Source: Gammaproteobacteria bacterium (GTDB lineage: Bacteria > Pseudomonadota > Gammaproteobacteria > QZLD01). From it: a DNA stretch of 64,000 bases. The notes below the pieces were generated by a model. It saw only the letters and a list, made by a program, of their open reading frames with translations, did not search any database and was not told where the DNA came from. The stretch lies in assembly GCA_033852155.1 (NCBI GenBank), contig JAWSVA010000004.1, forward strand, positions 7,830 to 71,829, written 5' to 3'. Shown here piece after piece: positions 3,209-24,415 of the stretch (positions are counted from its first letter, which is position 1; each line of letters starts with the position of its first letter). Position numbers and translations under genes: made by a program.

Positions 3209-3416
3209 AGAAGTTTTTCAGGATAATAGGCTTTATATGCATTCCCACGCAGAGCATGGGAACGAGAAAAGTTCCCTGAGCGTAGCCGAAGGGTCGCCAT
3301 TCGTCCTGAGCCTGTCGAAGCATGATCAATGGGGTCAGAGTCAATGATTTTAAGATCCCTGAGCGTAGCCGAAGGGTCGAAAGAAAAAACATTGACTCTG
3401 ACCCCATTGATCTTAA
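3209..3416. repeat. Composite extragenic repeat element. It has a 23-bp perfect inverted repeat (3324-3346 and 3390-3412) and two direct copies of the 23-mer ccctgagcgtagccgaagggtcg (3274-3296 and 3357-3379), plus a degenerate third copy at 3301-3320.
   Basis: Read directly from the sequence. The element fills the gap between the asnB-like stop and the glycosyltransferase start. A related degenerate copy lies at 36203-36237. Confidence 0.7.
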
Positions 3417-8136: not shown

Positions 8137-8190
8137 GCTAGGCTGTTACGCTATCCATTTTGTAAAACTGTATTATCTATACTCATAGAC

Positions 8191-9387
8191 TTAACCTTCT
8201 AGTAGGTCCACAACTTTGGCAACGTTACTTTGCCAGTTATAATTTTTCAAGATCATCTCGCGCCCTTTATCACCCCAAGACTTAGCTTGTGCATCATCTT
8301 GTAATAGTTCAGCTACTTTGTCTGCGTAGGTTTGAGCATCATCTATAGTTAGCTCAGAAAACTGTTCAATATCTTTAATCCCTTCCATAGCCTGGCTAGT
8401 TGCAACAACTGCTTTGCCCATCGACATAGCCTCCAGCACTTTATTTTGTACTCCGCGAGCAATTCGAAGTGGAGCAACAGATAGGTTAGAGTATTGAATA
8501 TAAGGGCGAACATCCTCCACTCTTCCAGTAACAGTTACTCCGGCAATATTACTTAAGGCATTTACTTTCGCAGTTGGCTTTGACCCAACGATAAAAAACT
8601 CCAAACCGGATATTTTTTGCTGTACTAACGGAAGAACTTCTTCAGCAAACCAAACAACAGCATCAACATTAGCCCAATAATCCATGGCCCCTGTAAATAC
8701 AATTTTAGGCGCTGCATTTACATATAGATTTCCTACATCAGAATTTGCAGTAAAAAATTCATAATCGACACCGTTATCAATGCTATGTACCTTCTCTGCC
8801 ACAGCTGGAACAAGCTCACGAAACAAAGCGCTCTCTTTTTCTGACACAAACAGGCTGTGATCGGCCTGCTGCGCAACCATCTTTTCCCATTCAAATAATT
8901 TTTTATATTCACGTTTATACAACCAACTGGCAGGCCATTTTTTGCGGCTACTATATTGGCGCCACTTGTCCGAATCAATATCAACAAAATCAACGACCAT
9001 TTTCAGATCAAAGCGGGTTGATGAAACAAATTGAGCCATTGCAGATGAGAAAACCAGAGTTTTATTGACCCCTTTTGCAATAACTTGCTCTACATAATCG
9101 GATAGCTCTTTACTTTGGTAGTATGGAATAGATAACGCATCTGCGGTAAGAAAACCTTTTAAGGATTTAATCTTGCTTACAAATGGATCAATCTCTATCG
9201 CACAAAAAGACTCGCACAAAGATGCAACATGCTCTTTATATTGCAGATCTTCTTTATCATCTATGAAGGTCGCTAAGTGAATCTTGTACTCTTTTCGCAA
9301 CTCATTTAAGAGATGATAAGACCTAATCTTATCTCCTTTATTTGGCGGATATGGAATACGGTGCGCAAGAAACAGCAACTCTTTCAT
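8191..9387 (-). CDS. Glycosyltransferase (GT-B fold) of the type associated with PEP-CTERM/exosortase systems.
   Basis: 398 aa. Position and fold-level motifs only; family recognition is weak. Confidence 0.6.
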   Translation of the reverse strand: MKELLFLAHRIPYPPNKGDKIRSYHLLNELRKEYKIHLATFIDDKEDLQYKEHVASLCESFCAIEIDPFVSKIKSLKGFLTADALSIPYYQSKELSDYVEQVIAKGVNKTLVFSSAMAQFVSSTRFDLKMVVDFVDIDSDKWRQYSSRKKWPASWLYKREYKKLFEWEKMVAQQADHSLFVSEKESALFRELVPAVAEKVHSIDNGVDYEFFTANSDVGNLYVNAAPKIVFTGAMDYWANVDAVVWFAEEVLPLVQQKISGLEFFIVGSKPTAKVNALSNIAGVTVTGRVEDVRPYIQYSNLSVAPLRIARGVQNKVLEAMSMGKAVVATSQAMEGIKDIEQFSELTIDDAQTYADKVAELLQDDAQAKSWGDKGREMILKNYNWQSNVAKVVDLLEG

Positions 9388-9420
9388 TTGACTACCCCTA
9401 ATAATATTTAAGGTTTAGGA

Positions 9421-10473
9421 TTATCCAAGATTTTTAGAGATCATTGGGCCAATAACGCGACAAAGACCAAGAGGCAACTTCTTCCAAGTATCGATAAAAA
9501 ATTTATACTTTGGATTATTAGGGTTAATCTCTGGCATCTTATCTGCTTTTACCAAATAGTATTGATACGGAAGCGGTTCTGGTACAAATCCCCAGTTCTT
9601 TTTAAAACTATAGGCCCCAGTTCCCTCTTTACTACGGCCAAAATCAAAAATTCTACACCCTTTTTCTGCTGCGCGACGCATCACTTCCCAATACATAAAA
9701 TCATTGCCTGCAAGTGATCGAGCAGAATCTTTACCACCGCCGTAATAAGGCAATACTGCATCACGAAAATAAAAATTCATAACACTGGCAACCACTTCAC
9801 CTTCATGGGTAATAGTTACTATTTCACACTTATCTTTAAATACATCTTTAAGAATCTGGAAATATTTTTTCGCAAAGACTGGAGTTCCCAATCTCCAAAC
9901 ACTAAAGGAATACGCATCAAAAAAACGTTCAATATCTTCGTCAATCTCACTTTGTAAGCCAGCTTTAATACCCTTACGCACCATCGCCCTTTGCTTGCGA
10001 GGGATAGCTGACATATTCTCATCGTCATCAGAGCTTATCTCTTTACTAAAGGTTACATACAGCTCTTTAGTTGGCCATTCTGGATTATTTATTTTCCGTT
10101 CACGCAGTTCAAGACTATCTACCTTTAGCTGATCCGCCAGTTTACAAGCCTGCTGTTCCAGTAATTCCCTTACATCATCAGAATCTGCTATTGCCCCACC
10201 ATATACAGTAAAAGGCATACTCACTAAATTATTACCAAATAACATACTCTTTACATGGCCGAGAGGAAGCACACCTACTATCTTGCCACTAGATTCTCCA
10301 TCCGCAACAGATTCGGCATAATACATATAAGTCTTATGACCAAAGGCCTTTTCAATAACTGCTTGCCACTCCGCTAAATGGAAAAAAGTGCCATCAGCAT
10401 TATTAGTGACGTATTGATTCCAATCCGCATATTTATCTTTAGTAAGTAGTTTTATCGCTAATGCTTCGTTCAT
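9421..10473 (-). CDS. FemAB-family (GNAT-fold) protein of the type associated with XrtA/PEP-CTERM systems.
   Basis: 350 aa cytoplasmic protein. It is the expected size and occupies the locus position of the exosortase-associated FemAB-like proteins. Recognition is by context and general composition and is moderate. Confidence 0.55.
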   Translation of the reverse strand: MNEALAIKLLTKDKYADWNQYVTNNADGTFFHLAEWQAVIEKAFGHKTYMYYAESVADGESSGKIVGVLPLGHVKSMLFGNNLVSMPFTVYGGAIADSDDVRELLEQQACKLADQLKVDSLELRERKINNPEWPTKELYVTFSKEISSDDDENMSAIPRKQRAMVRKGIKAGLQSEIDEDIERFFDAYSFSVWRLGTPVFAKKYFQILKDVFKDKCEIVTITHEGEVVASVMNFYFRDAVLPYYGGGKDSARSLAGNDFMYWEVMRRAAEKGCRIFDFGRSKEGTGAYSFKKNWGFVPEPLPYQYYLVKADKMPEINPNNPKYKFFIDTWKKLPLGLCRVIGPMISKNLG

Positions 10474-10485
10474 TCTAATCCTAAT

Positions 10486-11343
10486 TTATTTATTAAGGTC
10501 TACGCGCGGCTTATCTTCTGGCTGTAAGAAAATATTATCCATCCGGTCCCAATCAAAATCCTGTAACAATCTACCTAATCTTTTTTCCATTCGACTAAGA
10601 TTAGTATAGTGCCTAAACTTAGTCTTAAAGTTAGTTCCTTCTTGTCTTGGCTGCTCAGGGTCTATCTCCCACGGATGAAAATAGAAAACAGACGCCTGTT
10701 TATCAACTTTATTTACTTTATTTATTGCGCGCTTAGACCAAAAATATGGCAACAAGCGAAAATAACCTCCGCCACCACAAGGAAAATTATTCCCCAACAC
10801 CTTAGTTGTAGTTACTGGAACTTCGATAAGATCCAGATCATTTGGTAAAAATGCAAAGCGTGGTGCATCAGGCATCCCATAAAGATCGTGGTGAATCGGA
10901 TATATACTTGAGCTATATTTATGCCCAGTTTCCTGCAATATATCTAATGCCCACAAATTCTTTGTTCCAATGGAGTAGCTCGGAGCCCTATAACCTTTTA
11001 TCTCTGTACCAGATAAATCCTCCAACAGCTTTTTGGTCTTTATAATATCTTCTCTAAATTCATCTTTAGTCATCTTGATGATACGAACATGATCCCAACC
11101 ATGACTAGCAAGCTCATGCCCCTGCTCAACAATTCTTTTAATTAACTGAGGATATCTATGGGCCACCCAACCAAGTACGAAAAATGTTGCTTTAACACCA
11201 TGCTGTGAAAATAGCTGCAGCGCTTTATCGGTATTTTGCTCTACACGACATGGTAATCTCTCCCAATCAGATCGATCGATTACATTTTCAAAGGCTGAAA
11301 CCTGAAAATAATCTTCTATATCAATGGTCATAGCATTTTTCAT
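10486..11343 (-). CDS. Polysaccharide deacetylase (NodB family) of the XrtA-locus type.
   Basis: 285 aa. MTIDIEDYFQ at the N-terminus and the HGWDH motif match the NodB/CE4 catalytic motifs. Confidence 0.7.
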   Translation of the reverse strand: MKNAMTIDIEDYFQVSAFENVIDRSDWERLPCRVEQNTDKALQLFSQHGVKATFFVLGWVAHRYPQLIKRIVEQGHELASHGWDHVRIIKMTKDEFREDIIKTKKLLEDLSGTEIKGYRAPSYSIGTKNLWALDILQETGHKYSSSIYPIHHDLYGMPDAPRFAFLPNDLDLIEVPVTTTKVLGNNFPCGGGGYFRLLPYFWSKRAINKVNKVDKQASVFYFHPWEIDPEQPRQEGTNFKTKFRHYTNLSRMEKRLGRLLQDFDWDRMDNIFLQPEDKPRVDLNK

Positions 11344-11397
11344 GATTTCAGCTTCGCTTGATTTATGTACAAAGTTATAAATACTTTTAAAAAAAGA

Positions 11398-12534
11398 TTA
11401 AGACAATTGCTCTAACCACTGCGATAGGTGTGCAGCAATACGTTTAGCAGTATTTCCATCCCAATATTCTGGAATACGCCCTGCCTTTCCTTTTCCTTCC
11501 ATCACCTGGTCAAAAGTTTTAAGTATCAGCTCACGATCTGTACCAACAATTGTATTGGTACCATCGGTAGCGGTAATAGGTCTTTCAGTGGATTCTCGCA
11601 GAGTTACACAAGGTACACCAAGAGCCGTTGTCTCCTCCTGAATCCCTCCAGAATCAGTCAATACAACCTTTGCCCCTTGCATCAATCCCAGCATATCTAG
11701 ATATCCAGCTGGAGGTATTCGCAGGATAGAATCAGTCTGTAATAACCCCTCTAACCCAAATATCTCAATTTTTGATGCTGTACGCGGATGAACTGGAAAT
11801 ACGATAGGGATGCGTTTACTGATTGTATTCATTGTTTCCAATAAACCACGTAAAGTAGCCTCATCATCCACATTAGATGGGCGATGCAGGGTTAAAATCG
11901 CATAACTTCCATTTTCCCCTGTGAATTTTTCCCCTCCACCGTTGTTTGCAAATATTTGCTGCGCTGGAGTTGCCTGTTCTAAGTTATTACGCAAGGTATC
12001 AATCATCACATTACCAACGAACTGCACTTTCTTGCCAGCAATCCCCTCTTGAGCTAGGTTATCTGCTGCTTCACGCTCAGTGGTATAAAGTAAGTCAGAT
12101 AGTTGATCTGTAAGTATTCTATTAATCTCTTCCGGCATAGTGCGATCGCGACTACGCAATCCTGCCTCAACATGAATAACAGGAATATTTTTTTTCGCAG
12201 CGACTAAACCACAAGCAACAGTTGAATTAACATCCCCGACAACTAACACTGCTGCAGGATTATGTTTATCAACTTCGGGCTCAAATCTTTTCATTATATC
12301 TGCAGTTTGTACTGCATGAGAGCCTGAACCAACACCAAGATCAACATCAGGTTTTGGAATTCCAAGTTGATCAAAAAATGTTTTTTTCATCGCCTCATCA
12401 TAGTGCTGTCCTGTATGTACCAAAACAGCGTTTATTTGACTATTTTCTCTATTAAATTCAGCCATTAATGGAGCTATTTTCATAAAATTTGGTCTAGCTC
12501 CAACCACACACATAACTGTTTTATTTTTTTCCAC
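11398..12534 (-). CDS. wecB: UDP-N-acetylglucosamine 2-epimerase (non-hydrolysing)
   Basis: 378 aa with the characteristic MKIAPL...HTGQHYD...RPNFMK and HVEAGLRS motifs. Confidence 0.85.
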   Translation of the reverse strand: MEKNKTVMCVVGARPNFMKIAPLMAEFNRENSQINAVLVHTGQHYDEAMKKTFFDQLGIPKPDVDLGVGSGSHAVQTADIMKRFEPEVDKHNPAAVLVVGDVNSTVACGLVAAKKNIPVIHVEAGLRSRDRTMPEEINRILTDQLSDLLYTTEREAADNLAQEGIAGKKVQFVGNVMIDTLRNNLEQATPAQQIFANNGGGEKFTGENGSYAILTLHRPSNVDDEATLRGLLETMNTISKRIPIVFPVHPRTASKIEIFGLEGLLQTDSILRIPPAGYLDMLGLMQGAKVVLTDSGGIQEETTALGVPCVTLRESTERPITATDGTNTIVGTDRELILKTFDQVMEGKGKAGRIPEYWDGNTAKRIAAHLSQWLEQLS

Positions 12535-12590
12535 GTCGTCCTTCCCAGGAATTAACTCATGCTATTTAAATTTTGGGGGTGGCAGATTAA

Positions 12591-13694
12591 TTAATTACCG
12601 CCATCTTGGTTAGAGCCAAACTGTTTGCGAATATTTCCAAATAAGATTTCATGAAGATATTCAATTTTCATCTCCAGTTTATTAACTTTTTTCTCTAATC
12701 CTTCTATCTTTTCTTCAGCCCCTTCAAGTGCTGCTGAAGTTATGGCCTTATATTCATCGTAATTTCTTTGCGGTGTACCAGGCTTGGTCTTTTTACTTGA
12801 TTCAGATGATTCCGCAATACACTTATCAAAAAACCGCTCCGAAATATCTACATCATCTTTTTGTGACTCATGAGTTATAGCAAGCATTTCCCCTTTTAGC
12901 TCATTAACAACTCTTATCGTTACATCGCTATTAAAGTGATCAAGCTCTTCAATCGCACCAAGCAATAGCAGCCTATTACACAATCTATTAATTTTACGAG
13001 GGATACCGCCAGAGTTTTCAAAAATTGACCTTAAAGCATCATCAGCAAACTCTGGCCTACTCTTCCAGCCAGATTTAATTAAACGATAAAGAATATAGTC
13101 CTTTGTCTCTTCTGAACTTAATGGTTCTAGATGGCAAGAAGCTATTATTCTTTGCCGAAACTGCTCCATAGATTCATGCCCAAGCAAATACTGTAGTTCA
13201 ATCTGCCCCAATAAAAAGCACTGTAATACTGGCTTACCTTTATAACTTATATTAGAAAGCATACGCAGCTCTTCTAAACCTGATAACGACAAATTCTGAG
13301 CTTCGTCAATTACAAGCAATACTCTCTTTCCATCTTTAGAAACCTTAAACAGATACTCTTCAAGCTTGCCAATTGCTTGAGGTTTTGTCAGCCCTTTACT
13401 ATCAATTTTCAAGGCTGAGCAAACCATATATGGGATATCATCCCCATCTAACTGAGTTGTAACAATTCTTGAAGCTATAACTGGACCAAACTCTAATACT
13501 GAAAACAACCTTTCAACCAAGGTTGTTTTACCAGTACCAATATCGCCAGTAATAACAATAAAACCTTCACCTTGCTTTAATCCATATTGGAGATAAGCGA
13601 ACCCTTGCTTATGTACCTTGCTACCAAAAAACAGGTCCATATTTGGAGTTAGTTGAAAAGGGTTGCCTTTAAATCCGTAAAAATCTTCGTACAT
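12591..13694 (-). CDS. AAA-type ATPase (ExeA-like) of the XrtA/PEP-CTERM-associated type.
   Basis: 367 aa. The Walker A motif is GDIGTGKTT and Walker B is LLVIDEAQNL. There is a C-terminal coiled-coil tail. Confidence 0.65.
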   Translation of the reverse strand: MYEDFYGFKGNPFQLTPNMDLFFGSKVHKQGFAYLQYGLKQGEGFIVITGDIGTGKTTLVERLFSVLEFGPVIASRIVTTQLDGDDIPYMVCSALKIDSKGLTKPQAIGKLEEYLFKVSKDGKRVLLVIDEAQNLSLSGLEELRMLSNISYKGKPVLQCFLLGQIELQYLLGHESMEQFRQRIIASCHLEPLSSEETKDYILYRLIKSGWKSRPEFADDALRSIFENSGGIPRKINRLCNRLLLLGAIEELDHFNSDVTIRVVNELKGEMLAITHESQKDDVDISERFFDKCIAESSESSKKTKPGTPQRNYDEYKAITSAALEGAEEKIEGLEKKVNKLEMKIEYLHEILFGNIRKQFGSNQDGGN

Positions 13695-13739
13695 ATTTGT
13701 TCCGCAAGCAATAGTCTGAATGCTTTATGATTAATACAA

Positions 13740-15182
13740 TTAATATTTCAGCTCAGCCCCAACAGTAAATTTTGCCTGTTTATATTCAAAAGCGGCTTCT
13801 GTGCCATCACGAATTCCTGCTTGAACAGCAGTATACCAGATTGCTTTTTTACTCATGTTTCTAGTGTATTTCAATGAGTAAGTGCTCATATCATCTAATC
13901 TATCATTTAAATCATCTCCAAGCCTCCACCATCTTAGGTTAGCTCTGATATTTGATTTACTTGATAGGGTATAATCCCACTGAATATCTGCCCCAATAAA
14001 AATCTCATTCTGCCCTAAATTTCTATAAATTCGATCTTCGTATTTCAAGGTTAAATCGATACTGTTTTTTACACCCTCAACATTCCAGGTGAGACGTGTT
14101 TTTTTCTGTACATAGACATCACTTTCTCCACGATAAAACTTATATAAACGTTCATCAACAAGCTGATCTGTAATATCCTGAGTTACTCGATTTACCTGCT
14201 GTTCGCTATAACTTAGGCTTAATGCAGTTTTATTATTTTCATAGCTGAAACTTGCAAGATATGTGTCACCATAAAGGTCTTCCCCACCACCAAACTCAAG
14301 CTTTGTTCTAGTTGATAGCGAGTAAGCAATTTTTGCATCCCAAACATTACCTTCAAACCAGGAATAATTGGTAGATGAGCTAAGCCGCTCCCATTTCTTC
14401 CCAAGCATAATATAAAATATAGCTCTATTAAAAATAGGGTAACTAGATACCAAATCTACTTGTCTATATTCTGAAGCATTAAAGCCTTCAGTTTGTATAT
14501 ATTCGAAGCTGGAATTAATATTCCAATTAAACAATGCTGATCTAGATGCTGTGCCAAATGATACAATCGCATCATGCTCTTCAACATCATCGATTCCTCG
14601 ATCATAATATATTTTTCCGTGCGACGATGAATAACTAACGCCTAAATCACCAGATATCGGCAGTACAAACCTAGGCTTAATCTGCCCAGTATATTTATTA
14701 GCGCTGTTGGCGCCATAGATCAATCCATCAAATGATATTGCATCTTCAGCATCTATTACTTCACTTTCATGTGAGACATAAAAATCAGTAAAAAACCTAT
14801 CCCTGATTAACTCAACCCCAAGATCACCTCTTAGCAGATGTTGCATGTCATTCATACCGCTATTTTTGGCGTACATATACCCCGAAGCTCTATAATCCAT
14901 ATAGGCATTAACTCTACGGCCTTGGCTCTTAAGGTTCACAAAAGGCGAAACTAATAGATAGCTATCTGATTCACGTTGCGCAGCCCCAATATCAACATTA
15001 TCTGTAAAAACATATTCTGAGGTAACCCCAGCATTAAGCTCCAACTTTTTTGCATATATGGTTGTTGAAAATAAAAGCAGTAAAACCACAACTGATTTAT
15101 TAACGAATACAAATGGGTTTTTAATTAAATAAACCACGGCATTCCCTCGTCTATTTATATTGTCTTCTATATGATGAACCAT
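13740..15182 (-). CDS. Putative outer-membrane beta-barrel protein of the PEP-CTERM-system-associated type.
   Basis: 480 aa. A hydrophobic signal-like segment VVVLLLLFSTTIYA lies near the N-terminus. The composition is rich in alternating aromatic residues and ends in a terminal ...AELKY (aromatic C-terminus). The annotated start overlaps the upstream gene by 32 nt, so the true start may be further downstream. Confidence 0.5.
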   Translation of the reverse strand: MVHHIEDNINRRGNAVVYLIKNPFVFVNKSVVVLLLLFSTTIYAKKLELNAGVTSEYVFTDNVDIGAAQRESDSYLLVSPFVNLKSQGRRVNAYMDYRASGYMYAKNSGMNDMQHLLRGDLGVELIRDRFFTDFYVSHESEVIDAEDAISFDGLIYGANSANKYTGQIKPRFVLPISGDLGVSYSSSHGKIYYDRGIDDVEEHDAIVSFGTASRSALFNWNINSSFEYIQTEGFNASEYRQVDLVSSYPIFNRAIFYIMLGKKWERLSSSTNYSWFEGNVWDAKIAYSLSTRTKLEFGGGEDLYGDTYLASFSYENNKTALSLSYSEQQVNRVTQDITDQLVDERLYKFYRGESDVYVQKKTRLTWNVEGVKNSIDLTLKYEDRIYRNLGQNEIFIGADIQWDYTLSSKSNIRANLRWWRLGDDLNDRLDDMSTYSLKYTRNMSKKAIWYTAVQAGIRDGTEAAFEYKQAKFTVGAELKY

Positions 15183-16134
15183 AGTAAGGATTTGAATTTC
15201 TTGTCCTTGATTTATTTAAAACAAGATTAACAATATCGTTATCATCCAGTATATCAACTGCTTTTTTTACATTTTCATGAGAGGTTGAGTAAGACTCAAC
15301 AACCAATACAACCTGCCCAACAATGTCAGCTAAAACCTTTGCTTCACTTGTAATAAGAAGAGGAGGTGAATCCAGAATAACAGCACGATCATTATATCTT
15401 TGTGAAATCTCATCTATAAGCGATAGCATTGCGCTACTTGCAAGAATTTCAGTTGCTTTTTCATGCCCGCTTCCTGCTGGTAGTATTACTAGGTTTTCAA
15501 TATTAGTTTTAACCAATACGTCGGTCATTTTAATAGTGTCATCAACCAATAAATCAATTAGCCCCGGTAAATCAGGGTCCAAACCAAGATATTCACTTAT
15601 CGATGGTTTAGGAATATCTGCATCGATAAGCAAAACCGTTGTATCCATCTCTGTAGCCATGCTCATAGCCAAGTTAATTGATGTAAAAGTTTTCCCTTCA
15701 CCAGGTAAGGCACTAGTTACCATTATAATATTAGAGTTATCGAACTCTTTAGATGCTGCCCCAAATGCATTATTTAGAATAGGCCTTTTAATAATTCTAA
15801 ACTCTTCAACTAAAGAATTATCATCTCTACTTGAAGTGATAATATTTTTGCTTTCAAGCTTACGCAAATCAATTTTCTGAGGTTTTGCGCTAGTTATGAT
15901 ATTTGATTCGCTTTCAGCCGCAATCTGACTTTGTCTATTAGCCGAATTAGAGTTATCTTTATTTTTGGAAGCTTTTCCCGGCTCATTCCAAAATTCAGCT
16001 GGATTTAACTCATCATTATATTCTTCTTCAATACGTTTACGATAATCTTGCTGATCTTTTTGTTCATCTACACTTGAACTTTCAGCTGAACCACTCTTTT
16101 TTAGTTTGTTAAATGCATTTTCTATAGTGCTCAT
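15151..16134 (-). CDS. BY-kinase ATPase subunit. This is the Wzc C-terminal-like tyrosine autokinase (EpsG type).
   Basis: 327 aa. It has Walker A ALPGEGKTFTSINLA, Walker A' VLLIDADIPKPS and Walker B VILDSPP. The C-terminal tail is Tyr-rich: PYYGSSYRRQYK. Confidence 0.7.
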   Translation of the reverse strand: MSTIENAFNKLKKSGSAESSSVDEQKDQQDYRKRIEEEYNDELNPAEFWNEPGKASKNKDNSNSANRQSQIAAESESNIITSAKPQKIDLRKLESKNIITSSRDDNSLVEEFRIIKRPILNNAFGAASKEFDNSNIIMVTSALPGEGKTFTSINLAMSMATEMDTTVLLIDADIPKPSISEYLGLDPDLPGLIDLLVDDTIKMTDVLVKTNIENLVILPAGSGHEKATEILASSAMLSLIDEISQRYNDRAVILDSPPLLITSEAKVLADIVGQVVLVVESYSTSHENVKKAVDILDDNDIVNLVLNKSRTRNSNPYYGSSYRRQYK

Positions 16135-16135
16135 A

Positions 16136-17752
16136 TTAACCTACCAATTGAGTCAGCTTAGCGGCCAGATCTATTCCAGCATAGTGGATAAAAACAATAG
16201 TTATAAAAAAACAAAAATATATTACAAATCCAAGAGAAAACGTCATTATCTCAAACTTACGTTTTATTTTTCTTCTGCTATCGACTACTAAAGATACAGC
16301 TCCTAAAATAGGTCTATCGGCTATTTTCTCTAACGTCTTTTGACTATCAACTATTGGTTTTATCTGCCCTAAAAAGAAAGCAAAGAAAATACCACAAGCA
16401 AGTGAAGCCAGCATAACCACAGCTGAAAAAATAATTCTCGGGGGACCAGATGGATTAAATCCAACATATGGAGGATCAACAACATCAAAGTTAACGTTAT
16501 CAGTTCTTTGCTCCACATTTTGCGATATTAATGCAGACTCTTTTCGATCGACTAAAGCCTCATAATTTTTCTTATGTATACTATAATCTCTATTCAAGCT
16601 TTTTAATTCTGCTTCTACAGCTGGTATGATATCAATCTTAGCTTTTAACTTCTCTACCCTGTCCTGATATTCCACCAGCCTTGCTTTTGATACCGCTAAA
16701 TCAGCTTCCGTATTTCCATAGGATATCAATAGTTCCTGATAGATCGGGTTGGTATTAAGCATATCAAGAGGATTAGCATTTATTTTTGCAACCACATCTT
16801 GCTCAATTTTTTCCATGTCTGCTGCACGCTTCGATTCCAACTGAGAAAGCATTGCTTGAGCTTGAACTACATCTGGATGCTCATCAGTAAACCGTAGTTT
16901 AAGATTTCTTAAAGTATCCTTGTATTCTTCAATATCACTATCTAAATCGTGTTCAAAATCTTTACTTAATTTTTCACCTGAGCTTCTTTCAGAAACTTTT
17001 TTAGCTTCCTCAATGGCGTCTTTTTTCTGCTTATCTATAAGCTTTTGTAATCTCTTGCGCTTATTTTTCAACTCTGTATTTACAAGTCTATGCTTTTCCA
17101 GGTCATCTAAAGCACGCTGCATTCTGACATAATAGCCACCGCTATCACCAGGCATCTCACCAACATGTTCTCTTTTAAACTCTTTTAAACTGTTTTCAGC
17201 CTCTTCAAGTTTTTCTTTGTATTCATCAATTTGCTGATCAAGAAATGCTTGAGCAACATCAGTATCCTTTCTATTAGCACCCAGAGTGCTCTCAATAAAA
17301 ACTGTTAATATTGAGCTTACTACTTTTTTAGCTACCACTGGATCTTCATGAACATAGATAATTTTGTATTGGTCTTTTTGCAGATATCGACCAATTTTAA
17401 TTTTTTTCTCTAGTTGCTTAAGCAGTTTCTCTTCATCTTCTTCAGAGCTAACCTCAATATCTAAATCCGCCATCCTCGCAATTTGCTGTAGCTTAGGACG
17501 GGTAAATAGACGGATTTTTATCTGGCGCACTCTTTCTGAAAGATTAGTTGTTACTACAAGCCTGCCTAAAAGTGGTTTTAGAATTGATTCAGTATCAGCA
17601 TAAACAGTCGCAGTTGCTTCATACTGATCAGGAAGCTGTGCTACGACCCCCCAGCCTAAAACACCAACAAACCATGCGACAGCCAACATTACCCAGCGAA
17701 AACGCCAGACACTTCTTAGATATGTGAATAACTTATCTATAAATTCAAGCAT
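16136..17752 (-). CDS. Polysaccharide chain-length determinant (Wzz/Wzc N-terminal-like) of the PEP-CTERM locus subfamily (EpsF type).
   Basis: 538 aa. There is an N-terminal TM segment, a long coiled-coil periplasmic region and a C-terminal TM segment. It sits immediately upstream of the split kinase subunit. Confidence 0.7.
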   Translation of the reverse strand: MLEFIDKLFTYLRSVWRFRWVMLAVAWFVGVLGWGVVAQLPDQYEATATVYADTESILKPLLGRLVVTTNLSERVRQIKIRLFTRPKLQQIARMADLDIEVSSEEDEEKLLKQLEKKIKIGRYLQKDQYKIIYVHEDPVVAKKVVSSILTVFIESTLGANRKDTDVAQAFLDQQIDEYKEKLEEAENSLKEFKREHVGEMPGDSGGYYVRMQRALDDLEKHRLVNTELKNKRKRLQKLIDKQKKDAIEEAKKVSERSSGEKLSKDFEHDLDSDIEEYKDTLRNLKLRFTDEHPDVVQAQAMLSQLESKRAADMEKIEQDVVAKINANPLDMLNTNPIYQELLISYGNTEADLAVSKARLVEYQDRVEKLKAKIDIIPAVEAELKSLNRDYSIHKKNYEALVDRKESALISQNVEQRTDNVNFDVVDPPYVGFNPSGPPRIIFSAVVMLASLACGIFFAFFLGQIKPIVDSQKTLEKIADRPILGAVSLVVDSRRKIKRKFEIMTFSLGFVIYFCFFITIVFIHYAGIDLAAKLTQLVG

Positions 17753-17780
17753 TATTTATATACGCTCTCGTTAGAGTATT

Positions 17781-18404
17781 CTAAAACCATGACTCAGGAA
17801 TTATAATTGTATCACCAGGCATCATAGGAACATTTGCTGATATATCACCATCTTTTATCAAATCACCCAGGCGCACTCTATATTGTTTTGAAACTCCATT
17901 TTCTTTTCTAATAATAGAAGCCATATTTCCTGATGCATTGACCGTTAATCCACCAACTGAGATCACAATATCGAGTACTGTCATACCTGACCTGTAAGGA
18001 ATTGCTATGGGCCTTCCTGCCTCACCTATAACGCGAACTAACTGTCCATATTCACCCGCAAACACTTTAACTAATACAGTTACTTGAGGATTCCGAATAT
18101 ACTTTTTAAGTAGTTTTTCAATTTCACGCGCTAAAGCTGAAGGAGTTTTACCCGCTGCAACAAGGTCTTCAATTAATGGGGTGTTTATTTTTCCATCAGG
18201 TCTTACAGGAATTTCAACAGAGAGATCAGCATTCCTCCATACGAATATATCTAGTCCATCTCCTGGACCAATAAGATAATCAATAGATTTACTCTTACCA
18301 ATTGACGTTGGAGCTTCCGGATAACTTGCCACACACCCAGTAATAGCACCAAAAAAAACCAGATAAGCAACTAATTTTGCTATAAAAAATTTCATCATTA
18401 CCAC
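17781..18404 (-). CDS. Polysaccharide export protein (Wza/EpsE-like lipoprotein)
   Basis: 207 aa. The signal peptide carries a lipobox-like ITGC. The PGDGLDIFVW and DGDISANVPMMPGDTIIIP motifs are typical of the Wza/soluble-ligand-binding beta-grasp family. Confidence 0.7.
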   Translation of the reverse strand: MVMMKFFIAKLVAYLVFFGAITGCVASYPEAPTSIGKSKSIDYLIGPGDGLDIFVWRNADLSVEIPVRPDGKINTPLIEDLVAAGKTPSALAREIEKLLKKYIRNPQVTVLVKVFAGEYGQLVRVIGEAGRPIAIPYRSGMTVLDIVISVGGLTVNASGNMASIIRKENGVSKQYRVRLGDLIKDGDISANVPMMPGDTIIIPESWF

Positions 18405-18538
18405 CTACTATACGATAAATGAACAAAAAGAGATTATTTAGCCTACAACATTAACAATAAAAAAGTTACGGACAACATTCCATGATTCTGCCGCACTTAA
18501 TAGAATAAGAATAATTTAGAAATCTACTTTTAGCAATT

Positions 18539-18566
18539 AAAAAAGGCTGCATAAGCAGCCTTTTTA
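18539..18566. terminator. Rho-independent, apparently bidirectional terminator immediately after the PEP-CTERM gene.
   Basis: The hairpin aaggctgc-ataa-gcagcctt is flanked by an A-run (18539-18544) and a T-run (18561-18565). Confidence 0.6.
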
Positions 18567-18585
18567 TTTCAAAGCAGTTAAAGAT

Positions 18586-19344
18586 TTACTTTCTTTTTCT
18601 ACTTACAAATCCAAATGCAGCTAATCCAAGACCAAAAATGGCTAATAAAGCTGGCTCAGGAATAGCTTCAACAGACTCAACCATAACTACAAAGTCAGTA
18701 TAGTCTTTATCTGATGTTGCTAGAGGCATATCTTCCCATGCAAGAATATACTCATCTGCTGTCCAAGTTCCTTTATCAGCTCCTGGCAATTCAATCTCAT
18801 CACCCTGCCCCTGATACGCAACCATGTGATCATCACCTTTCACATCACCATCAGCTGATTCATTTAAAATTGCTTGTGAATAATAAATCTCACCGCTACC
18901 TGAGTTCAGATAATAACCAAAACGATCGCGCTCAAACAAACCAGCCTTATATCCAACAAAAGCATTCTCATCATCTAAAGTTACAACAGAAACCACTCCA
19001 GCTGCATTGATAGATAGCGTAGATTTATAGCCAGCCACATGATCGCCAGCAAATAACTCAATTGAATTAAGTGGGTTTGAATAATCATATACACCAAATG
19101 AGTTTATATTTTCATACCCAGCAAGCTCAATTACCAAAGTAGCAAAAGACCCTCCAGATGCGGTTAACGACCAAAGCTCGTCATTTCTCATCTGGTCAGT
19201 ATGAACGTTTACAGAAGAATCTCCGACAACAGTGATATCATTTAAAACACCTTGCAGGGCATTGCCCTTAACAACAGTAGCTGAAGCAGTGCTCGCTAGC
19301 ACAAGCAAAGTTGTTGCAATTAGTGACGTCAAAAGTTTTTTCAT
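18586..19344 (-). CDS. PEP-CTERM sorting-domain protein. This is the exosortase substrate.
   Basis: 252 aa. It has a signal peptide MKKLLTSLIATTLLVLASTASA. The C-terminus IPEPALLAIFGLGLAAFGFVSRKRK gives the PEP motif, a hydrophobic TM helix and a basic tail. This is the canonical tripartite PEP-CTERM signal. Confidence 0.85.
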   Translation of the reverse strand: MKKLLTSLIATTLLVLASTASATVVKGNALQGVLNDITVVGDSSVNVHTDQMRNDELWSLTASGGSFATLVIELAGYENINSFGVYDYSNPLNSIELFAGDHVAGYKSTLSINAAGVVSVVTLDDENAFVGYKAGLFERDRFGYYLNSGSGEIYYSQAILNESADGDVKGDDHMVAYQGQGDEIELPGADKGTWTADEYILAWEDMPLATSDKDYTDFVVMVESVEAIPEPALLAIFGLGLAAFGFVSRKRK

Positions 19345-19393
19345 TTTATCTACCTTTGTATTGTATGGTAAAACAATTAATTTGAAATCTATT

Positions 19394-19411
19394 TAGCAAC
19401 AACCATACCAA
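19394..19411 (-). promoter_or_regulatory. Candidate sigma-54 (-24/-12) promoter for the PEP-CTERM gene.
   Basis: The minus strand reads TGGTATG-gttg-TTGCT, against the consensus TGGCACG-N4-TTGCW, with exact spacing. It is located about 50 nt upstream of the ATG. Confidence 0.45.
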
Positions 19412-19513
19412 CATTAAAATATTCTTATTTATCAAAATAATAATCAAGCATTGCATATTTCACAAAGCACTCAATGTAAAATATGCTGACACAATTTAAA
19501 AACTATTTTTACG

Positions 19514-22258
19514 TCACTCCCCAATCATCTCCAATAACTCTATGGCCTCTTGCCTAATTTTTGTATTGAATGATTTACCATTTATTGAATCTTTTAATAC
19601 GTCTCGCGCAGTGATCTCATCGCCATTTGCAATTAGTGCCTGCGCATAATGCAACGCAATCTCCTGATCCCCTTTTCTTTTTCTATGCGCCACAACCAAC
19701 TTATCCAATGCTTCTTTAACTTTTCCAGCCTTAAGCAATATAACCCCATATGTATCAATTATCTCTGGTTGATTCTGAGCTAACAAATATGCTTTTTGCG
19801 CATATTCTAAAGCCAATTGAAAATCGTCCTCAATTGATATGAATGCTAAATTATTCAGTGCCAATATATGATTAGGAGCATCTTGCAATATATTTTTAAA
19901 TTCAATTTTAGCTTTTTCAACCATACCTGACTGCAACAAGGAATCTGCTAATATATACCTAACTGCAATATCTCTTGGATTATTCTCCAACCACTTTTGC
20001 AGTACATCAATTCCTTTTCCAGCCTCTTTTATAGTGTAATAAGCCTTTGCTAACTGAACTGCTGCCTTGGGTGATTTGCTTATTGATAAAGCTTGCTCAT
20101 AATAACTTATTGCAGCTTCACTATCCCCTGTTGCAAACTTATACCTACCAAGTAAAACTAGTTTATCTGCATTATTTCCAACCTTTCCAATATCTGCAAT
20201 GAGCTTACCAGCTTTTTTGATTTCACCTTCAGTAATATATATATGGGCTAAACTCAGCTTCGATGGAATATGATTTGGGTTTTCCCTTAAAGCCTTTTTA
20301 ATGTTCAATTTGGCCCTTCGAGAATCCCCCACCCTTTCATAAACCTTTGCCAATAAATAGTACGCTATTGGTGAATTAGGTTGAGCCCCTATCATCTTTC
20401 CATAAGCTGACACGGCACTTGCTGGCGCATTCATAGCAAGATATATATCACCTAAAAACTTTAAAGCAAAAACATTATCAAGATTTAATTGTGGTGGCTT
20501 TCGAAGCACTTCTAAGGCACTAAATGGATCTCTGGATTGTATAAAAAAATTAGCCAAAGCTAATCTTGCCTCTAGCGACTCTGGATAGATTTTAACCCAT
20601 GTTTGCAGATATCCCATCGCGCTATCAAGCCTGCCAGACTTTGCTGCCAAATTCGCAATCTGAGGCAAAATAAGAGGGTGATTTGAAAACTTTTCAAGAC
20701 AATTTAAAAAGACTTTTTCAGCCTCTTGCACCTTATTTTGCTTAACCAACATCTTACCTAGGTGCAGGGTTGCCAGAGGATCCGCTATTCTGTTTTGTAA
20801 CGCGATCAAAAACGATCTCTCTGCCTCTTCATATTTATTGTTTTTTACAAACACCATCCCATTTAAAGTATGAGGTAAGGCGCTTTCAGGAAGTGCATTA
20901 GCAAACTTTGCAGCTTCATCACTGGCTTCTGATAATTTTTCTACCCTGATATAAGCCAATATTAATAATATCTGCGTCTGAATATTTTCTGGATATTCGC
21001 CAATTATAGACTCAAGGGTAGCTTGTTCCGAAACTGCGCCAATAAAATTAGATTGGCCATCAAGATCCCATTGAAGCATAAATGCTTTTTGCAATATTGG
21101 AACAGCATCATTTATCTCACCAAGCCCCATAAGTATTTTGCCATATATAAGTACAACAGAAGGGTCTTCAGGTAACTTCTCAATAACTGGTTTTATTACC
21201 AGTTTTGCTTGCTCTAACTTATTTGCTTTTACCAAAACCTTAGTTAAAATTTTTCTGGCATGATAATTATCTGGATTCTTGACTATAACTTTATTTAGAT
21301 TCTTTTCTGCCTGCTCTAGATTCCCAAGTTCAAAATACACCCCGCCTAAAAAAAGCCAGGTCTCTATTGAGTCTGGAGCAGATTTTAATGAACTTTCAAA
21401 AAAATCTTTTGCATCGATGAAGTTTCCTTTGCGCATTGACAAAAGGCCCTTAGCAAAAAAATACGTGGGGTGATCAAGGATCTTATTTTTAATTTGGGCT
21501 AAATCTAATTCAGCTTTTTCGAGCTCATTTATTCTAATTCTAAGTAAGGCGCGATGCATATAGGCTGTTAATGACAACCCCTCATTATTATCAATTACAA
21601 CCGAATATGATTTTTCAGCTTCTTCATATATTTTTAACCTGCTTTCAACTCTACCTTTTAATAACCAGGCACTATAGTGCTCTGGATATTTAACTACAGT
21701 TTCCTCAAGAAGTTTCTGTGCTGTTTTATAATTCCCCTGATAAACACTGTATTTGATTTGGACCATTTGAATTGAAAGATTTTCAGCATCTAACCCAATA
21801 CCCATTTCAATATAAGTATAGGCCTTACCCCCTTCACCTAGTCCCATATGTGCTTCAGCCATTGCAGCATAAACATTTGCTCTTAGCTTTGTGCTGAAGC
21901 TTTCACTTATCTCTATCTCGTCAATAACCTTTCTATACTCACCCTGTTTTAGAAGGGTCTGCATTAAGGCTGGATAAATTGCTTTTTTGTCAACACCAAG
22001 CTGCAAAGCAGCCTTTAATTCTTTTTCCGAGCTTTCCCACTTAGCAAGATCATTGTATATAAGACCTAATAACCACCTGGCTTCTGCATTTTTAGAGTTA
22101 AACTTCAGCGCATTTTTTAATTCAATTACGCTTGATTCAAGATCTCCCTGCTGTTGAAACCCTTTTGCCTTTCTAATATATTCGATATCAGACAGCTGTT
22201 TTTCCCCACATGATGTTAACAAAATGATTGCCAACATTATTGATGCAATTATTTTCAT
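19514..22258 (-). CDS. prsT: PEP-CTERM-system TPR-repeat lipoprotein (PrsT type)
   Basis: 914 aa. The lipoprotein signal is MKIIASIMLAIILLTSCGE. The protein is almost entirely TPR repeats. It lies adjacent to the PEP-CTERM gene. Confidence 0.75.
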   Translation of the reverse strand: MKIIASIMLAIILLTSCGEKQLSDIEYIRKAKGFQQQGDLESSVIELKNALKFNSKNAEARWLLGLIYNDLAKWESSEKELKAALQLGVDKKAIYPALMQTLLKQGEYRKVIDEIEISESFSTKLRANVYAAMAEAHMGLGEGGKAYTYIEMGIGLDAENLSIQMVQIKYSVYQGNYKTAQKLLEETVVKYPEHYSAWLLKGRVESRLKIYEEAEKSYSVVIDNNEGLSLTAYMHRALLRIRINELEKAELDLAQIKNKILDHPTYFFAKGLLSMRKGNFIDAKDFFESSLKSAPDSIETWLFLGGVYFELGNLEQAEKNLNKVIVKNPDNYHARKILTKVLVKANKLEQAKLVIKPVIEKLPEDPSVVLIYGKILMGLGEINDAVPILQKAFMLQWDLDGQSNFIGAVSEQATLESIIGEYPENIQTQILLILAYIRVEKLSEASDEAAKFANALPESALPHTLNGMVFVKNNKYEEAERSFLIALQNRIADPLATLHLGKMLVKQNKVQEAEKVFLNCLEKFSNHPLILPQIANLAAKSGRLDSAMGYLQTWVKIYPESLEARLALANFFIQSRDPFSALEVLRKPPQLNLDNVFALKFLGDIYLAMNAPASAVSAYGKMIGAQPNSPIAYYLLAKVYERVGDSRRAKLNIKKALRENPNHIPSKLSLAHIYITEGEIKKAGKLIADIGKVGNNADKLVLLGRYKFATGDSEAAISYYEQALSISKSPKAAVQLAKAYYTIKEAGKGIDVLQKWLENNPRDIAVRYILADSLLQSGMVEKAKIEFKNILQDAPNHILALNNLAFISIEDDFQLALEYAQKAYLLAQNQPEIIDTYGVILLKAGKVKEALDKLVVAHRKRKGDQEIALHYAQALIANGDEITARDVLKDSINGKSFNTKIRQEAIELLEMIGE

Positions 22259-22365
22259 GCACTACTTTCCAAGGTTTTATTAATTAATTTAAAAGGTCTG
22301 CCGACCAAACCTATAAAAGAATTTGTTTATGCATACAACATTTTCACTTTAATAAGGCTAAGTAT

Positions 22366-23175
22366 TTATTCAACAACAAAAGTAACTGAAGCAACCTCGC
22401 TCCCGCCCTTGCTATCAAACATCCTTAAATCATACTTACCTTTATATAAATATACCGTAAATACCATAATCCCATTTATTCGGCTATCTATCGTATACTT
22501 TTCCAAATCATGTTTATCATTTAGTTTTTCATCATCGTGCGGTACTGATGAACGTATCAAACCAATCCAAGCATTCTTTCTAAACCATTTTGGAGCTGAA
22601 AACTTAACCTTTATCGCTTCGCCAGTTTTATATTTTTTCTTATTTAGCTCTAGACTACCGCTTGATTCTTTAACCATAAAAGAAACATAAACAACTTCTT
22701 TTCCCATTTCGCTGTCATGCATTCTTATATCATATTTACCATATTTTAATGGTGCCGGAAAAAGCATTGTGCCTTTAGTTTTCCTATCCAAGTATTGATA
22801 AGTTAGCGCATGTAGATCATTTTCTTCTGCCTTACCATGCTTAATATTTGAAGGTATAATTCCTAACCAAGCATTTTCTCCATATCTTTTTGATGCTCTA
22901 AATGAAACTTTAATCTTTTCTCCTGGAGCATAAAGAGTCTTATTAATATATATTTTTGGTTTGAAAGTTTTTTTACTACTATTGCTATTGTTTTGTGCGT
23001 TACTTCTTATTATTTTATCCTGCTCTCTATCCTCAATTTCTTTATTTTGTTGCGTAACAAATTCAGGAGCGCTTCTAGCTGAAGCTGGCCGTCCCACTTC
23101 AGCGTTTACATTCCTCATAGACCCTAATAGCCCAACAGCTATAGTAAACGAGAGTATTAATCCAAAAAACCTCAT
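22366..23175 (-). CDS. Secreted protein of unknown function made of two tandem ~90 aa repeat domains.
   Basis: 269 aa with the signal peptide MRFFGLILSFTIAVGLLGSMRNVNA. It carries an internal duplication with the pattern GE-IKV-F-A-K...NAW(L/I)G(I/L)I...KGKYD(I/L)RM-DS...V-F-V-E. It is the first gene of the EPS gene string. Confidence 0.6.
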   Translation of the reverse strand: MRFFGLILSFTIAVGLLGSMRNVNAEVGRPASARSAPEFVTQQNKEIEDREQDKIIRSNAQNNSNSSKKTFKPKIYINKTLYAPGEKIKVSFRASKRYGENAWLGIIPSNIKHGKAEENDLHALTYQYLDRKTKGTMLFPAPLKYGKYDIRMHDSEMGKEVVYVSFMVKESSGSLELNKKKYKTGEAIKVKFSAPKWFRKNAWIGLIRSSVPHDDEKLNDKHDLEKYTIDSRINGIMVFTVYLYKGKYDLRMFDSKGGSEVASVTFVVE

Positions 23176-23365
23176 GTTTTGCCCTATTCATTTTTATGAT
23201 TCTTACCATCAAGATATGCGAAATCATATGTTTTTACAAAGATCTACCACACATATTTATAACTTTATTCTAGAATATGACACAAAAACCACCAATCAAC
23301 AGCCAGAATGCTCATAAAATACTCAGACTAAGCTTTAATAACCAACGATTGGTGGTAGGTTTTAA

Positions 23366-24415
23366 TTAAGCGATGGTTATGTCTTTTGAAAGATAAACAT
23401 CTTGAATCGCGTTAAGAATCTCAACACCTTCTTGCATTGGTCTTTGAAATGCTTTTCTACCGGAAATAAGTCCCATGCCACCAGCTCTTTTGTTGATTAC
23501 AGCTGTGCGAACCGCTTGCTCCAGGTCATTTTCACCAGAGCCACCACCAGAGTTAATAAGTCCCGCTCTGCCCATATAGCAGTTAGCCACTTGATATCTA
23601 GTTAAGTCAATCGGGTGATCAGTTGTTAGTTCGCTATAAACTTTCTCATGAGTTTTACCAAACTTAATAGCGTTATAGCCCCCATTATTCTCAGGCTGCT
23701 TTTGCTTTACTATGTCGGCATTAATAGTCGCAGCAAGATGATTTGCCTGCCCGGTTAAATCAGCAGAAACATGATAATCAACACCATCTTTTTCAAACGC
23801 TGGATTACGCAGATATGCCCACAAAATAGTGACCAGTCCAAGTTCGTGAGCATAAGCAAAAGCATCGCTTACTTCTTGAATTTGACGACGGCAATCTTCA
23901 GATCCGAAATAAATAGTTGCGCCGACTGCTGTAGCACCCATATCAAACGCCTGCTGCACTGATGCGAACATAGTTTGTTCATATTTTGCAGGGTAGGTCA
24001 AAACCTCATTATGATTTAGCTTTAGAATAAATGGGATTTTATGCGCATATCTTCTTGCAATTGAGCTCATACCACCAAGCGTTGAACAGACAGCATTACA
24101 GCCACCTTCAATAGCTAACTTGATAATATTCTCTGGATCAAAATAGATTGGGTTCGGAGCAAAAGATGCACCCGCAGAATGCTCAATACCTTGATCTACT
24201 GGAAGGATAGAAAGATAACCTGTTCCACCTAATCTACCAGTATCAAACATCTGCTGCATATTTCTTAAAACAACTGGCTTTCTGTCATTTTGAGAAAATA
24301 TGTCGTCGATATAGTTTTTACCTGGAAGGTGAAGTGTATCTTTTGGAATACCGGTACAGGTATAATCAAGTAAGGTTTCAGCTTCAGATCCTAATAGTTT
24401 TTCAATTGTTGTCAT
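23366..24415 (-). CDS. fbaB: Class I fructose-bisphosphate aldolase (DhnA/FbaB type)
   Basis: 349 aa. It is collinear with E. coli FbaB, for example [37 protein letters not shown] and [19 protein letters not shown]. Confidence 0.9.

Follow-up and report, generated by a model that had tools for sequence, protein, structure and literature searches.

An uncultured gammaproteobacterium of the QZLD01 lineage (contig JAWSVA010000004.1) encodes, adjoining a complete XrtA/PEP-CTERM exopolysaccharide locus, a secreted protein of two tandem domains, which we analysed within a stretch of 64,000 nt (hereafter the window). Coordinates are positions in this window, and the two-domain gene, the neighbouring prsT gene and the XrtA locus all lie on the minus strand. 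We find that the domain belongs to a widespread extracytoplasmic immunoglobulin-like (Ig-like) module, which has an unusually sharp signature and no Pfam or NCBIfam model, and that the domain family in itself does not belong to the XrtA system; conserved co-location with XrtA genes occurs only in one isolated, narrow clade of Gammaproteobacteria. The reading that we prefer for the protein itself, at roughly even confidence, is that of a non-catalytic binding or scaffold protein of the periplasm or cell surface that was recruited in this clade as the first gene of the prsT transcription unit.

The initial annotation, made from the DNA alone, had described a signal peptide, a low-complexity linker and two homologous domains of about 90 amino acids in tandem. 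This layout held up, and all of the motifs quoted for it (GE-IKV-F-A, NAW-G-I and KGKYD-RM-D) are present, with the correction that each domain spans ~98–100 amino acids. The two halves of the protein (residues ~70–172 and ~172–269) were aligned by BLASTP without gaps at 41 of 93 identities (44%, E = 2e-26); the internal duplication is therefore far beyond chance and survives careful alignment. A hidden Markov model (HMM) of the family likewise matched two domains in the open reading frame (ORF; hmmsearch, E = 6.3e-73). Domain 1 retains nearly the whole family signature (PGE, AWxGIxPS, HG, ND, YxY, G, F-AP, G-YD-RMHD, G-E and F-V). Domain 2 has lost the family-conserved P12, P36, G42, Y54, Y56, A69-P70 and the histidine of RMHD, and retains W, G, H41, N47-D48, D51, G63, G74, Y-D-x-R-M and E. 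Ahead of the domains, the N-terminus consists of MRFF, a 15-residue hydrophobic core and the sequence VNA/EV, which we judged by eye and by rule to be a signal peptidase I-type site; residues 5–17 form a low-confidence helix in the full-length AlphaFold2 model. The protein contains no cysteine, and it therefore has no lipobox and is not a lipoprotein. Its C-terminus (...SVTFVVE) shows no PEP-CTERM tail, that is, no PEP motif, transmembrane helix and basic tail.

An AlphaFold2 model, which the initial annotation had proposed as a check, was built from a 31-sequence alignment and consists of two seven-stranded β-sandwiches, in both of which strands 3 and 4 are separated by a single short helix, at a mean predicted local distance difference test (pLDDT) score of 91.3 over residues 70–269. 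The predicted fold is a generic Ig-like sandwich, and the protein has β-sandwiches of the MG type. Foldseek comparison with the PDB returned generic tandem-Ig matches only (template modelling scores of 0.3–0.4); the best fold matches were MG domains of alpha2-macroglobulin (A2M), complement and bacterial A2M, and a PDB sequence profile search gave chance-level matches only (E ≥ 0.4). The initial annotation had recognised no family and no catalytic motif, and we concur: no curated Pfam or NCBIfam model claims the protein, and it looks non-catalytic. The Pfam scan produced nothing above threshold and no SKICH match; MG2 (PF01835) reached 17.2 bits (E = 0.0067) against a cut-off of 32.8, and Arrestin_C, A2M_BRD, bMG6 and Reeler were also matched below threshold. 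In the NCBIfam scan, 0 families appeared at E ≤ 10, so that there is no curated XrtA-associated model for this protein. A carbohydrate-binding module had been suggested as well; no model of this kind was present among the Pfam matches of the protein or among the 25 most frequent families of 111 relatives. A literature search for a bacterial SKICH- or MG-like module found nothing relevant.

We then placed the protein in its wider family. A word-indexed search found 46 relatives, and an exhaustive phmmer search, which covered 1.84 billion cluster representatives, returned at least 806 clusters (50% identity), spread over many phyla, with a threshold of E ≤ 1e-3, of which 497 also passed E ≤ 1e-10; the matched proteins are 173 to 3921 amino acids long and contain one to ten matched stretches. 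From 192 proteins we extracted 460 full-length domain copies, with one to six tandem copies detected per protein (two in 98 proteins, three in 59). Their consensus is xxLxLxKxxxxPGExIxVxFxA-7x-AWIGIxPSxxPHGxExxNDxxDxxYxYL-5x-GxxxFxAPxxxGxYDxRMxDxDxxGxExASVxFxV, in which R79 is present in 458 of the 460 copies and G74 (98%), W31 (96%), P70 (95%), E89 (93%) and H41 (91%) are close behind, a sharper signature than a spacer domain needs. An N-terminal hydrophobic run is found in 156 of 193 family proteins, 47 of which have a lipobox, and a regular-expression screen identified a PEP-CTERM-like tail in none of the 193. Among the 111 members scanned, the domain itself drew weak Pfam matches to MG2 (29), Arrestin_C (15), SKICH (9), A2M_BRD (8), bMG6 (5) and HECW_N (4), and its partner domains were OmpA (9), VWA (5), Cu_amine_oxidN1, DUF748 and others, all of them modules of the cell envelope; a VWA partner was seen in six of 20 members that were scanned individually. 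The module occurs free-standing or fused, typically as a run of two to three copies that follows a signal peptide or a lipobox. Nothing suggests catalysis, and the fold, together with the tandem layout behind an N-terminal hydrophobic or lipobox signal, fits a binding or scaffolding module at home in the periplasm, on the outer surface or in the matrix.

Several fusions and variants stood out among these relatives. In small lipoproteins (P0040, P0044 and P0045), one copy of the domain precedes a Tudor-knot-like C-terminal domain, and in another group (P0052, P0055, P0056, P0065, P0068 and P0075) three or four copies are preceded by a VWA domain at the N-terminus. In the 591-residue P0060, two canonical copies are accompanied by three full variant repeats and a truncated one (KDWI[AS]I...YEIRG). 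The Pfam SKICH model matches this protein (E = 2.9e-11), with its best stretch (125–170) inside one variant repeat, and the family HMM matches the same variant repeats at E = 1e-5 to 1e-8, which suggests that P0060 may be a sequence bridge between the bacterial family and SKICH domains.

The case for recruitment rests on the orthologues of the window protein. Nine are available (P0001–P0009, 55–100% identity), all from uncultured gammaproteobacteria, and the six loci that could be read share one gene order: DUF1631 (on the opposite strand), aldolase, two-domain gene, prsT, PEP-CTERM protein, exporter. We estimated ratios of nonsynonymous to synonymous substitution (dN/dS) against five orthologues and obtained 0.07–0.14 for domain 1, 0.054–0.067 for domain 2 and, where not saturated, 0.28–1.0 for the linker. 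These values indicate strong purifying selection on both domains and point to domain 2 as the most constrained segment. The clade is further set apart by a signal peptidase I signal rather than the lipobox common elsewhere, by a conserved N-terminal peptide, by the linker (lysine-rich in eight of nine orthologues) and by the remodelled domain 2. The n-h-c layout of the signal peptide and the alanine at −1 are common to all nine orthologues, with valine or alanine at −3. The peptide that follows, at the mature N-terminus, is near-invariant in all nine as EVGRPxSA(R/K)(S/N)(A/V)PEF, and the linker after it varies in length and sequence. Motif and linker together measure 45–92 amino acids. In the eight other orthologues (P0002–P0009) they reach up to 92 amino acids and the linker is lysine-rich, with a net charge of +10 to +21; the linker of the window copy is shorter, rich in Asn, Gln, Ser and Glu, and has a net charge of only +1. 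The N-terminal peptide is not present in distant family members, and when all fetched loci and the window were screened for it with a regular expression, only the orthologues matched. It may, for instance, serve as a docking or sorting motif. Residues 20–36 have pLDDT values below 50 in the full-length AlphaFold2 model, so that most of the peptide is predicted to be disordered, and intramolecular docking of the peptide on the two domains was ruled out on these grounds.

Non-coding sequence around the gene was compared across the six loci as well. The initial annotation had placed the gene 107 bp upstream of prsT on the same strand, at the head of the exosortase locus, and had thought co-transcription possible; the position is correct, the locus is a genuine XrtA locus, and co-transcription with the two-domain gene first in the unit is plausible and is the most economical reading of the sequence. 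It is plausible because an aldolase terminator and a conserved putative promoter region of the gene's own lie upstream, and because only a ribosome-binding site is conserved in the spacer to prsT. The terminator of the aldolase gene is strong, and the two-domain gene is therefore transcriptionally separate from the aldolase gene; the terminator stretch TTGGTGGTTTTT is invariant in six loci. The leader of the two-domain gene contains a TATAAT-like hexamer and a conserved 23-nt block, ATGTGTGGTAGATCTTTGTAAAA, which recurs in the window and in loci L001, L003, L090, L091 and L092, being identical in four of the six and showing one to three differences in the other two, amid non-coding sequence that has diverged. 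The window contains a single copy of the 19-nt core of this block, where 0.03 would be expected. The block holds a TTGTAA hexamer, followed 17 nt later by a TAnnnT hexamer, a possible second promoter by its resemblance to the consensus; candidate roles for the block as a whole are those of an operator, a promoter element or a leader RNA motif, and no Rfam match for the conserved 5′ leader was found at E ≤ 1. Orthologous spacers between the gene and prsT measure 35–148 bp and have only the GGGGAAA/TGGAAA ribosome-binding site of prsT in common, and at 35 bp the spacer of L091 hardly has room for a separate prsT promoter. A search of the two intergenic regions for sigma-54 promoters (GG-N10-GC) found nothing in the window and a single site, itself unconvincing, in L003.

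Under the recruitment reading, a copy of the two-domain module would have been captured at the upstream edge of an XrtA/PEP-CTERM exopolysaccharide locus in one uncultured gammaproteobacterial clade. It would be expressed from its own conserved promoter, with transcription most likely reading through into prsT, and its product would be exported by Sec to give a mature protein made of the conserved N-terminal peptide, a flexible linker and two rigid Ig-like modules. Its site of action could then be the periplasm, the cell surface or the matrix, and its role that of a binding or scaffolding protein, with W, H-G, N-D, Y-x-Y, D-x-R and E, the polar and aromatic positions conserved in each sandwich, turned towards a polymeric ligand of the envelope or matrix. 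Judging from the strand register of the model, the family-invariant positions on strands 3, 4, 6 and 7 and on the intervening helix would share one sheet face, likely a ligand-binding surface. The diverged and constrained domain 2, together with the N-terminal peptide, may supply a lineage-specific interaction, for which PrsT and the exported polysaccharide are candidates; a disordered N-terminal peptide is the kind of element that a tetratricopeptide repeat (TPR) protein such as PrsT could bind, and a basic linker could engage an acidic polymer.

This interpretation must be made cautiously, however, and a competing explanation, which we regard as doubtful and still take seriously, is that the protein is a mere bystander: a general envelope module unrelated to exosortase biology that happens to occupy the slot between aldolase and prsT, with read-through into prsT of no functional significance. 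A number of observations weigh against recruitment, in favour of this alternative, or both, among them the distribution of the family. A forward scan of one genome per GTDB species gave 109 confirmed stretches, from which 80 loci with flanks of up to 10 kb were kept, belonging to Acidobacteriota, Desulfobacterota/Deltaproteobacteria, Bacteroidota (including Bacteroidales), WOR-3, Omnitrophota, Chloroflexi, Planctomycetota, Ignavibacteriae, Clostridia, two Sporomusa isolates and one archaeon. We searched these flanks by tblastn with 17 window proteins (15 from the XrtA locus, the aldolase and DUF1631), at E = 1e-10 and then 1e-2, and at both thresholds 79 of the 80 had no XrtA-locus gene in reach; the only locus with such genes in its flanks, L010, is from a close relative. 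All-against-all clustering of neighbouring ORFs in the 79 loci revealed no recurrent operon partner, only shadow ORFs, Y_Y_Y-type regulators and generic ABC transporters, and distant homologues that we looked up individually had unrelated surroundings. Conversely, XrtA loci occur without the domain: it was not found in any of five PrsT/XrtA loci outside the clade, four of which were located through PrsT (L093, L094, L095 and L100) and a complete and more distant one through the exporter (L097; the exporter scan gave four loci). PrsT identity drops from 56% within the clade to 29% outside it, with no intermediate genomes. Within the clade, the housekeeping neighbours (aldolase, DUF1631 and ComEC) are syntenic too, and the adjacency to prsT could therefore be an inherited gene order without functional meaning. 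In the window's own spacer before prsT, a terminator scan detected a weak terminator-like hairpin. The N-terminal peptide is predicted to be disordered, the basic linker that might bind a polyanion is nearly neutral in the window copy, and, as noted above, a PEP-CTERM tail is absent from all 193 members.

Other observations run against the bystander explanation. The gene and prsT are on the same strand with spacing down to 35 bp, and no conserved terminator or promoter separates them; the hairpin of the window is not conserved in the orthologous spacers. The N-terminal peptide, the linker and a domain 2 that is remodelled and nonetheless constrained are features expected after recruitment to a new partner. 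In addition, a sensor kinase and sigma-54 activator pair, presumably PrsK/PrsR judging from their Pfam domains, lies directly before prsT in L100 and, in L093, before a TPR paralogue that precedes prsT; the two-domain gene of the clade holds the position taken by this pair and is thus inside the usual boundary of the locus. No such pair was found next to prsT or among the larger window ORFs that were scanned. Because neither 79 of the 80 GTDB loci nor any of the five outside XrtA loci show an association, the domain family is not a general part of the XrtA system, and the proposal that the protein is an accessory component of that system survives as a lineage-specific possibility (six of six clade loci) and falls as a general one. 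The initial annotation had also envisaged that homologues with an unrelated known function might turn up widely outside XrtA-containing genomes; homologues are indeed widespread in contexts without XrtA genes, in flanks of up to 10 kb, and none of them has a known function.

We also considered whether the protein could be a periplasmic binder of metals or small ions that buffers or delivers envelope metal, with a Ca2+, Zn2+ or Cu site made up of H-G-x-E-x-x-N-D-x-H-D and Y-D-x-R-M-H-D. The conserved residues are rich in typical metal ligands (His, Asp, Asn and Glu), and one homologue has the UniRef name "DUF4198 domain-containing"; the family DUF4198 is periplasmic and Ig-like, and a connection with nickel uptake was once made. 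The most conserved residue of the family is, however, an arginine, which is not a metal ligand; domain 2 of the clade, although it is the most constrained segment, lacks the histidine of RMHD along with other positions; and no metal-transport genes are conserved beside family members. We therefore consider this explanation unlikely. An equally improbable, more elaborate proposal would extend the recruitment reading in two directions at once: the ~98-residue module would be an undescribed pan-bacterial relative of SKICH and HECW-N with a binding face centred on the invariant arginine, and the window protein would be a periplasmic exosortase partner encoded in the PrsK/PrsR position, its EVGRPASARSxPEF peptide docking in the TPR groove of PrsT while the basic linker and the sandwiches hold nascent polysaccharide or PEP-CTERM cargo. 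A further alternative, a miniature A2M-like protein that shields the matrix or periplasm by trapping or inhibiting proteases, might be imagined from the MG domains among the best fold matches, the weak Pfam matches to MG2, A2M_BRD and bMG6, and the JGI label "YfaS (alpha-2-macroglobulin family)" of one homologue. It is close to refuted, and A2M identity was rejected, as the protein has only two MG-like domains in 269 amino acids (bacterial A2Ms exceed 1500), has no cysteine and hence no CGEQ-type thioester, shows no detectable thioester domain, bait region or receptor-binding domain, and falls short of the MG2 cut-off.

Table 1. Features of the two-domain gene and its surroundings, in window positions.
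Feature	Coordinates	Strand	Basis and remarks
Class I fructose-bisphosphate aldolase gene	23366..24415	(-)	Upstream of the two-domain gene
Intrinsic terminator of the aldolase gene	23284..23356	(-)	Stem ACCACCAATCG...CGATTGGTGG, then T run; predicted folding free energy -24 kcal/mol
Putative promoter / 5′ leader of the two-domain gene	23176..23283	(-)	Alignment of six orthologous upstream regions
TATAAT-like hexamer TAGAAT	23267..23272		Within leader
Conserved 23-nt block ATGTGTGGTAGATCTTTGTAAAA	23232..23254	(-)	Within leader; holds TTGTAA
TAnnnT hexamer	23211..23216		17 nt after TTGTAA
AGGG ribosome-binding site	23182..23185		Within leader
Two-domain protein coding sequence	22366..23175	(-)	ORF list; ATG start, 269 aa; stop codon 22366..22368; identical to recorded protein P0001
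Signal peptide, residues 1-25	23101..23175	(-)	MRFFGLILSFTIAVGLLGSMRNVNA; predicted cleavage VNA/EV; sequence reading
Clade-specific conserved peptide, residues 26-39	23059..23100	(-)	EVGRPASARSAPEF; mature N-terminus; orthologue alignment
Low-complexity linker, residues 40-70	22966..23058	(-)	Poorly conserved; pLDDT 47-63
Domain 1, residues 71-170	22666..22965	(-)	Ig-like β-sandwich; HMM alignment
Domain 2, residues 171-269	22369..22665	(-)	Diverged copy; internal BLASTP, HMM alignment; pLDDT 80-93
Spacer to prsT, 107 bp	22259..22365	(-)	Between the two-domain gene and prsT
Weak terminator-like hairpin	22294..22312		Terminator scan
XrtA/PEP-CTERM exopolysaccharide locus	663..22258	(-)	Complete; edge adjoins the two-domain gene
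prsT, XrtA/PEP-CTERM TPR lipoprotein	19514..22258	(-)	TIGR02917, 565 bits (cut-off 312); first recognised locus gene
PEP-CTERM protein	18586..19344	(-)	Follows prsT; only PEP-CTERM protein seen in the window
XrtA-associated ATPase	12591..13694	(-)	TIGR03015, 319.6 bits, just under the 324.5 cut-off
XrtA-EpsI fusion, 533 aa	6535..8136	(-)	Residues 28-286 XrtA (TIGR03109, 329 bits); residues 397-526 EpsI (TIGR02914)
GT4 glycosyltransferase	1982..3208	(-)	XrtA locus

The locus that adjoins the two-domain gene (Table 1) continues after prsT with the PEP-CTERM protein, a TIGR03027 exporter, a TIGR03007 chain-length determinant, a TIGR03018 tyrosine kinase, a TIGR03016 outer-membrane protein, the TIGR03015 ATPase, WecB, a TIGR03006 deacetylase, FemAB, the glycosyltransferases stp1 and stp2, the XrtA-EpsI fusion, an amidotransferase, the GT4 glycosyltransferase and an O-antigen-ligase-like protein. 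Apart from the two-domain gene, 16 ORFs were compared with the curated models, and 14 of them match XrtA/PEP-CTERM-specific ones (the ATPase with a score slightly below the cut-off), the remaining two being WecB and a generic glycosyltransferase. The PEP-CTERM protein is likely an XrtA substrate; it is 64–74% identical across the clade, and its orthologues have a weak DUF4114 match and a PEP_exosort_dom tail. The context of the ATPase gene is unambiguous, yet its score below the cut-off might leave the gene unnamed in automatic annotation. On the other side, a divergent DUF1631/PacR gene follows beyond the aldolase gene, and the remaining 40 kb of the window are housekeeping.

If the lineage-specific link is true, the protein would offer an unusual opportunity to learn what PrsT binds in XrtA/PEP-CTERM export, a pathway that is poorly understood, and would illustrate the capture of a generic envelope module by an exopolysaccharide locus. 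Apart from XrtA, a family of this size with its invariant arginine, its lipoproteins and its OmpA and VWA fusions merits a curated model. Among known systems, the closest include the MG2 domain (PF01835; human alpha2-macroglobulin MG2, PDB 2p9r), SKICH (PF17751; NDP52/CALCOCO2, PDB 7eaa) and the N-terminal domain of HECW1/2 (PF16562, PDB 2lfe). SKICH and HECW_N mediate protein-protein interactions in the cytosol of eukaryotes; homology of the bacterial family to them is suggested by the sequence matches, whereas SKICH lacks the HG-E-ND helix segment of the bacterial family and the window protein itself has no SKICH match. RbmA of Vibrio cholerae, a secreted biofilm-matrix protein with two tandem Fn3-like domains (PDB 4be5), is a functional analogy only, with no detectable sequence relationship. 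With the XrtA/PEP-CTERM proteins (PrsT, TIGR02917; EpsI, TIGR02914; TIGR03016; PrsK/PrsR) the two-domain gene shares its strand and its position at the head of the locus, but its product has no NCBIfam/TIGRFAM match and its relatives are mostly found away from XrtA loci. Set beside these systems, the protein is a fairly ordinary hypothetical secreted Ig-like protein, a variant within the tandem Ig-like envelope modules of the MG/SKICH type.

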